This document shows, piece after piece, positions 10,747 to 12,431 of a stretch of DNA of 64,000 nucleotides. The stretch is from Escherichia coli (GTDB lineage Bacteria > Pseudomonadota > Gammaproteobacteria > Enterobacterales > Enterobacteriaceae), in NCBI RefSeq assembly GCF_011045215.1, contig NZ_CP049201.1, one strand, 5' to 3'. Below the pieces are notes generated by a model. That model was given only the letters and a program-made list of their open reading frames with translations. It was not told the DNA's origin and searched no databases. Both the position numbers and the translations under genes were made by a program. Position 1 is the stretch's first letter. Each line of letters opens with the position of its first letter.

Positions 10747-12431
10747 GTGCAGCACGAGACAAAAATGGAAAACCAGAGCTGGTTGAAAAAACTCGCACGC
10801 CGCCTGGGGCCTGGTCATGTCGTTAATCTCTGCTTTATCGTGGTATTGCTTTTTTCCACCTTGCTCACCTGGCGTGAAGTAGTGGTGCTGGAAGATGCCT
10901 ATATCTCCAGCCAGCGTAATCATCTGGAAAACGTAGCCAACGCGCTCGATAAGCATTTGCAGTATAACGTCGACAAACTGATCTTTTTGCGTAATGGCAT
11001 GCGCGAAGCTCTCGTAGCGCCACTGGATTTCACCTCTCTGCGTGATGCTGTAACCGAGTTCGAACAGCATCGCGACGAGCACGCCTGGAAAATCTAACTC
11101 AACCGACGACGCACCCTGCCAGTCAATGGCGTATCGGATGCATTAGTCAGCGAGGGAAATCTCCTGTCTCGCGAAAATGAAAGCCTCGACAATGAAATTA
11201 CCGCTGCACTGGAAGTTGGTTACTTGCTGCGACTGGCGCACAACTCCTCGTCGATGGTTGAACAGGCGATGTATGTCTCGCTTACGTTTCGACGCAGCCG
11301 ACCTTGTTTACGCGCAATGTTCCAACGCGTTATTACGGCTATGTCACCCAACCCTGGTTTATCGGCCATTCACAACGAGAAAATCGTCACCGCGCGGTAC
11401 GCTGGTTCACTTCGCAACCGGAACACGCCAGCAATACTGAACCGCAGGTTACCGTCAGTGTTCCGGTAGACAGTAATAACTACTGGTATGGCGTGCTGGG
11501 GATGAGTATTCCCGTACGTACTATGCAGCAATTTTTAAGAAACGCCATCGATAAAAACCTCGATGGTGAGTATCAGCTCTATGACAGTAAGCTGAGATTT
11601 TTGACCTCTTCCAATCCTGACCATCCAACAGGGAATATTTTTGATCCTCGTGAACTGGCCTTGCTGGCGCAGGCGATGGAACATGACACGCGGGGCGGCA
11701 TTCGTATGGACAGTCGCTATGTTAGCTGGGAACGTCTGGACCATTTCGACGGTGTGCTGGTGCGCGTCCATACGCTAAGCGAAGGCGTGCGCGGCGATTT
11801 CGGCAGTATCAGCATTGCATTAACCCTGCTGTGGGCGCTCTTTACCACCATGTTACTCATCTCCTGGTATGTGATTCGCCGGATGGTTAGCAACATGTAT
11901 GTTCTGCAAAGCTCGTTGCAGTGGCAGGCGTGGCACGACACCTTAACCCGTTTATATAATCGTGGCGCACTGTTTGAAAAAGCCCGTCCGCTCGCGAAAT
12001 TGTGTCAGACGCACCAACATCCTTTTTCTGTCATTCAGGTCGATCTTGACCATTTTAAAGCGATTAATGACCGCTTTGGTCATCAGGCGGGCGACCGTGT
12101 TCTTTCTCATGCTGCCGGATTAATTAGCAGTTCCTTGCGTGCGCAGGACGTTGCCGGGCGGGTCGGTGGTGAGGAGTTTTGTGTGATTCTGCCAGGCGCG
12201 AGTCTGACGGAGGCTGCGGAAGTCGCAGAACGTATTCGCCTGAAGTTAAATGAAAAAGAGATGTTGATTGCTAAGAGTACGACGATACGCATCAGTGCCT
12301 CGTTGGGGGTTAGTAGCAGCGAGGAAACCGGTGATTATGATTTTGAACAACTCCAGTCACTGGCTGACCGTCGGCTTTATCTCGCTAAACAGGCCGGGCG
12401 TAATCGGGTATGCGCGAGCGATAACGCTTAA
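10747..12431 (+). pseudogene. dgcQ: Diguanylate cyclase DgcQ/YedQ (GGDEF), disrupted by an in-frame TAA and a frame change
   Basis: N-terminal frame (from GTG 10747) ends at TAA 11095-11097 after ...HAWKI; same frame continues to ~11280, then the C-terminal GGDEF part (GGEEF motif) continues only in a different frame (11304..12431); total span not a multiple of 3. Confidence 0.7.

Follow-up and report, generated by a model that had tools for sequence, protein, structure and literature searches.

The dgcQ (yedQ) gene of the Escherichia coli contig NZ_CP049201.1 raises the question of whether this strain can still make the diguanylate cyclase DgcQ and, if not, how the gene was lost and whether its loss is out of the ordinary. 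E. coli has about a dozen diguanylate cyclases, DgcQ among them. We examined the locus within a stretch of 64,000 nucleotides, hereafter the window, and consider that its present state is very probably best explained by a two-step inactivation of dgcQ, with the full-length product absent and with neutral decay thereafter.

Reading frames and identity of the gene

An earlier note on this DNA had described a frame that opens at GTG 10747, meets TAA at 11095-11097 (...HAWKI) and continues as DgcQ-like sequence to about 11280, followed by a GGDEF part open only in a different frame up to 12431, the whole spanning 1685 nt. The raw sequence and the list of open reading frames bear out this description (Table 1). 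The GTG (10747-10749) coincides with the start annotated in K-12 and by PGAP, and the frame from there is open until the TAA (...EHAWKI*); beyond the stop the same frame still reads as DgcQ as far as ...MVEQAMYVS and then, shifted, runs to a stop codon at 11467-11469. The GGDEF frame (...RVGGEEF...) is open only from 11304 to its stop codon at 12429-12431, and the length of the whole is not divisible by three.

Table 1. Coordinates of the dgcQ remnants and lesions in the window.
Feature	Position	Strand	Description
dgcQ (yedQ) pseudogene, whole	10747..12431	+	1685 nt; intact gene 1695 nt (564 codons + stop)
N-terminal remnant ORF	10747..11097	+	116 codons + TAA; cytoplasmic N-terminus, first hydrophobic helix, first ~76 residues of CHASE7
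Lesion 1	11095..11097	+	TAA for GAA (E117*), G-to-T at 11095
Original frame past TAA	11098..11469	+	DgcQ sequence to 11280, then out-of-frame peptide (LTFRRSRPC...)
81-aa ORF of the ORF list	11224..11469		lies in the post-TAA original frame
Lesion 2	11281..11282	+	junction of 10-nt deletion; GTGCCGGATT lost; codons 179-182; frame -1
C-terminal remnant ORF	11304..12431	+	375 codons from TTG; rest of periplasmic domain, second hydrophobic helix, GGDEF with RAQD I-site and GGEEF

The assignment to dgcQ and the 564-codon K-12 gene, which the earlier note had taken as its reference, are upheld by synteny and by a nucleotide identity of 98.3% between the intact form of the window allele and the K-12 gene. 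The gene order yedA-yedI-yodC-dgcQ-yedP-yodD-dsrB-rcsA-fliR is the same in the window, in K-12 MG1655 and in the strains KL53 (NZ_CP030919) and TUM12355 (NZ_CP134376). Because the flanking genes yodC and yedP are kept and the gene aligns to that of K-12 over its whole length, the window gene is, judged on position and alignment, the orthologue of E. coli dgcQ. Since dgcQ ends tail-to-tail with the convergent yedP, with an overlap of 4 nt, no polar effect on genes downstream is expected.

In the intact DgcQ of strain CUVM3, Pfam places the CHASE7 domain at residues 41-227 (E = 6.8e-95) and the GGDEF domain at residues 398-557 (E = 4e-47); the hydrophobic helices were read from the sequence itself and not from a prediction tool. 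Both lesions fall within the periplasmic CHASE7 sensor, past the first hydrophobic helix but ahead of the second and of the catalytic domain. CHASE7 and GGDEF are consequently not found in one polypeptide in the window, the split being made by the TAA at codon 117 and by the 10-nt frameshift at codon 179, and the 375-aa remnant ORF keeps both the GG(D/E)EF motif and the RxxD I-site (GGEEF and RAQD) of the orthologous loci of K-12 (b1956, 564 aa) and CUVM3. Compared with DgcQ of these two strains, the frame in the window is broken twice and a 564-aa product is impossible; the sequence shows that full-length DgcQ cannot be made. The lost 10 nt begin with the second base of codon 179 and end with the second base of codon 182. 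As read from the alignment, its flanks show no direct repeats or microhomology, so that no slippage mechanism can be assigned to it.

Intact, stop-only and doubly broken alleles

Positions 10700-12450 of the window (1751 nt) were compared by megablast with 5426 complete E. coli genomes, in 5363 of which dgcQ was matched; in the best matches the 1751 query bases align to 1761 subject bases. The two changes proposed in the earlier note, a G-to-T change of GAA to TAA and a deletion of some 10 nt near 11281, were verified base by base: the alignments to K-12 MG1655, KL53 and CUVM3 contain a single GAA-to-TAA change and a single gap, of exactly 10 nt (GTGCCGGATT), after position 11281.

The close relatives form a graded series. 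(i) CUVM3 has the same allele in intact form (GAA, no gap), annotated as a normal protein of 564 aa (WP_001389132.1). Its nucleotide identity to the window is 99.4%, and the shortfall is made up of the 10-nt gap and the stop, i.e., about one base besides the gap differs over the 1751-nt query, the G at 11095. (ii) KL53 and TUM12355 carry the stop only, in a gene that PGAP/RefSeq classifies as a pseudogene for its 'internal stop', and share with the window the flanking genes and, over the whole gene, an identical sequence that includes the stop at codon 117. (iii) Relative to this E117* allele, the window further lacks the 10 nt at codons 179-182. It is identical to KL53 in every aligned column except the 10-column gap, with zero differing columns in the C-terminal ORF, and in a three-way alignment position 11095 is T in the window and in KL53 but G in K-12. 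Disabling lesions are thus present in comparison with an intact close relative, CUVM3 being intact, KL53 having the stop and the window the stop plus the deletion in otherwise identical sequence.

E117* is common to the window, KL53, TUM12355 and two further sequences, L013 and L014. The exact 49-mer bearing the TAA occurs in 28 of the 5426 complete genomes, a lower bound since a second SNP inside the 49-mer would mask carriers. In a collection of 15 billion proteins, at least 1000 public contigs encode the exact 116-aa N-terminal fragment, and 571 contigs have the downstream ORF of 405 aa that typifies the stop-only allele. Hence, E117* is a widespread, lineage-level allele. The 10-nt deletion junction, represented by an 80-mer across it, occurs in none of the 5426 complete genomes, all 4561 matches of the 80-mer being only 80-90% identical, i.e., gapped. 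With these counts for the junction and for the TAA, the alignment to K-12 and other strains that the earlier note had proposed returned neither an uninterrupted frame nor a sequence that could be taken for the common intact allele.

The series indicates the following order of events. In a first step, the G-to-T change turned codon 117 into TAA in the ancestor of a fairly large E. coli lineage; in a second step, the clone to which the window belongs lost ten bases at codons 179-182, with the frame shifted. Translation from the normal start stops after 116 residues, ribosomes reading through the TAA would reach the frameshift, and the GGDEF domain cannot be joined to the first membrane helix and the complete sensor. 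A further frameshift on the E117* background was found in L014, a contig of the Logan assembly ERR10124811 present in 4 samples and belonging to a second E117* lineage; here one unit of a CGTACGTA tandem has been lost at codon 259, a deletion of 4 nt. The independent secondary lesions known on this background are, therefore, the 10-nt deletion of the window and of a contig described below (L036), and the 4-nt deletion of L014. Because two independent frameshifts have arisen on the same nonsense background, selection appears to have ceased to maintain the reading frame, and the ten-base and four-base losses would represent neutral decay in a gene that was dead already; two secondary lesions are too few for neutral decay to be separated from selection for loss. 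The three stages, intact gene, stop, and stop plus frameshift, the last reached twice independently, illustrate the stepwise decay of a pseudogene.

Alternative readings of the broken gene

Could the C-terminal remnant be degenerate and yet active? The ORF at 11304-12431, or a shorter version starting past the second helix (ATG 11883 or 11895), would then have to be translated from an internal start, which we regard as improbable. The ORF carries no further lesion, keeps RAQD and GGEEF and is the same as in functional alleles in this part, but such identity to intact alleles is a sign only of recent lesions. Likewise, both known secondary frameshifts on E117*, the 10-nt and the 4-nt deletion, sit upstream of GGDEF, but this would occur by chance in about 40% of cases (281 of the 447 post-stop codons lie upstream). 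Nonsense codons upstream of an intact GGDEF domain, as in the window, are found in dgcQ of Shigella flexneri 2457T (S2095; stop at codon 56) and of several EAEC strains (stop near codon 312) (PMC11327459), and over-expression of the S. flexneri gene still raised c-di-GMP, albeit from a high-expression plasmid (PMC11327459). However, each of these alleles has a single lesion and an adjacent restart codon, which in S. flexneri is Met 59, three codons past the stop, whereas the window combines the stop at codon 117 with the frameshift at codon 179 and has no adjacent Met or other restart codon. The S. flexneri type of arrangement, in which an in-frame start right next to a nonsense codon ahead of GGDEF re-opens the GGDEF frame, is accordingly not seen in the window: the next in-frame start past the TAA is TTG 11224, 43 codons on, and the deletion makes that frame end at the stop codon 11467-11469.

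A start-site scan points in the same direction. No start from which the entire GGDEF domain would be translated is preceded by a convincing Shine-Dalgarno sequence; the best duplex amounts to -6.9 kcal/mol (ATG 11895), compared with -9.4 kcal/mol for a site within the GGEEF motif itself, and TTG 11304, the first start of the GGDEF frame, reaches just +0.4 kcal/mol. That the remnant, or a shorter cytoplasmic GGDEF fragment, might serve as a sensor-uncoupled, low-level diguanylate cyclase, an activity claimed for degenerate cyclases of S. flexneri, or, more broadly, that the many independent hits in the CHASE7 region might have been selected because they uncouple or remove this input, is conceivable but appears unlikely.

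That either lesion, or both, arose through faulty sequencing or assembly and that dgcQ is intact in the strain is highly improbable. An error at the TAA is countered by its recurrence: at least 28 independent complete genomes carry it, as do at least 1000 contigs. The rarity of the 10-nt deletion could be taken in favour of one: besides being absent from the complete E. coli genomes, the junction was not found in GTDB species-representative genomes or in JGI metagenomes, a null which speaks to the rarity of the deletion only. The junction-spanning dgcQ ORFs of 81 and 71 aa are absent from the 15-billion-protein collection, presumably because gene callers skip such ORFs. Three C-terminal ORFs were tried as markers of the deletion and rejected, namely the 375-aa ORF from TTG 11304, for which the contigs shown carry other nonsense alleles just upstream, and the 302-aa and 309-aa ORFs, which led to other dgcQ alleles.

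A carrier of the deletion was located via a linked marker, the yodD allele of the window. In this gene (13541-13756, - strand), which encodes a peroxide/acid stress protein, an in-frame 12-nt deletion (deletion point 13670/13671) has taken four codons (S-E-S-E), leaving YodD with 71 aa as compared with 75 aa in K-12. Eighteen public contigs, drawn from several lineages and for the most part with an intact dgcQ, have this 71-aa YodD. One of the 18, L036, from the Logan assembly of SRR11014969, carries the dgcQ deletion junction, has the 116-aa and 375-aa dgcQ fragments and is 100% identical to positions 9041-18256 of the window (9216 nt). Since a separate assembly of public reads thus reproduces the double-lesion genotype exactly, together with the yodD deletion, it is very unlikely that the 10-nt deletion is an assembly artefact. 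SRR11014969 may derive from the same isolate as the window; in that case an assembly artefact would be excluded, and a mutation specific to the culture would not. That another short deletion, in yodD, lies only 2.4 kb from that in dgcQ might seem to favour error, but the yodD deletion is an established polymorphism, and a clean loss of 10 nt in non-repetitive sequence is atypical of platform errors.

Programmed recoding, in which read-through and ribosomal frameshifting would yield a full-length protein, has next to no probability and is effectively refuted by the comparative series: nothing specific favours it, read-through having been speculated upon for S. flexneri dgcQ (PMC11327459), whereas the arrangement is not conserved (the frame of CUVM3 is uninterrupted, KL53 has the stop only, and the frame change occurs in 0 of the 5426 complete genomes, with a continuous frame in the relatives), two independent rare events would be required (read-through of the TAA and a compensating frameshift 62 codons later), and the deletion costs a conserved domain three to four codons.

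Recurrent loss of dgcQ, expected consequences and neighbouring features

Two-step inactivation of dgcQ in the window belongs to a wider pattern of loss. Among contigs with a C-terminal ORF of 375, 309 or 302 aa we saw about 14 other independent dgcQ knockouts, comprising the nonsense alleles Y176*, S178*, G181* (including E. coli DEC13A), Q187*, W207*, Q213*, R214*, Q237* and W250* (TAG and TGA), as well as frameshifts of +1 at codon 206 and of -1 at codon 252. Q187* occurs on three backgrounds, whose identities to the reference allele are 99.9, 99.2 and 98.9%. As in the window, these independent loss-of-function mutations fall in the same periplasmic part of dgcQ; unlike the window allele, the other knockouts are single lesions on different allele backgrounds, and E117* and the 10-nt deletion occur in none of them. 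That their positions cluster follows from the choice of ORF starts that were queried, an ascertainment effect and not evidence of a hotspot.

In L031 (GCA_024304345.1; locus 5827-9216), dgcQ is truncated to nt 746-1695 and followed by resolvase/invertase and phage tail-fibre genes, which suggests that insertion of a phage-derived segment is a further route to the loss of the gene. In E. coli DEC13A (AIHF01000018.1; locus 5860-6482), rcsA is called as fragments of 60 and 101 aa in place of 207 aa, and may thus also be disrupted beside the dgcQ broken by G181*.

In a 2026 pangenome analysis covering 2377 E. coli genomes, dgcQ is among the genes for which the pseudogene frequency is highest (PMC13322260). 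Repeated loss of dgcQ has been documented in both E. coli and Shigella, and the case of the window is an ordinary one of a known kind. The view in the earlier note that loss of this cyclase would be a notable variant was overstated, E117* being widespread and annotated in RefSeq, many other knockouts existing and the phenomenon being known from the literature. What was already known is E117*, which is flagged in RefSeq; what is added here is a clone-specific deletion in a dead gene. For annotation, the locus is to be treated as one pseudogene and not as two 'diguanylate cyclase' genes, as which its fragments appear in some public annotations.

From published work on DgcQ/YedQ we infer that the strain would lack the c-di-GMP input of DgcQ, which promotes the synthesis of cellulose and the expression of curli (csgD) and antagonises motility. 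YedQ reportedly contributes to the control of motility (work by Pesavento et al. in 2008 and by Boehm et al. in 2010). It is among the diguanylate cyclases that control csgD expression (PMC5635171), in a report that also cites the cellulose study of YedQ by Da Re and Ghigo. Because the flagellar genes in the window are all full length, an effect on motility would be possible in principle, and the dead dgcQ matters for reading the biofilm and motility phenotype of the strain.

The closest complete genome to the window is that of TUM12355, with which the first 30 kb are collinear, without interruption by IS elements and with all fli genes intact. A Shigella origin, suspected since none of the complete E. 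coli genomes was an exact match, was rejected on these grounds and on that of the intact flagellin described below. Of the 86 substitutions that separate the two over 25 kb, 62 lie within the 4 kb at about 15000-19000 (fliR to fliL). The ORFs there are all full length; this part of the operon for flagellar export is a recombination-like patch. Positions of about 36000-39700 (fliD-fliC) do not align to TUM12355, and the window therefore has a different flagellin (H-antigen) allele; its FliC is a full-length flagellin of 605 aa (NF005953, 769 bits).

Synteny with TUM12355 (yecA, tyrP and others) ends after a tRNA-Gly/Cys/Leu(taa) cluster at 49528-49829. Past the cluster, the segment up to 64000 contains phage tail genes, among them a tail tape measure gene at 56771-59614, and a weak VgrG-related match at 53273-54514; the segment 49528-64000 looks like a prophage integrated beside leuZ, which TUM12355 does not have at that site. 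Finally, 28500-30800 holds the remnant of an IS200/IS605-type element. Small indels (20, 17, 4 and 1 nt) separate the window from TUM12355 at 28527-29371, and the ORF for the RNA-guided endonuclease TnpB (29587-30795; 402 aa; NF040570, 385 bits) is intact in the window, whereas the annotation of TUM12355 treats it as a pseudogene interrupted by an internal stop.
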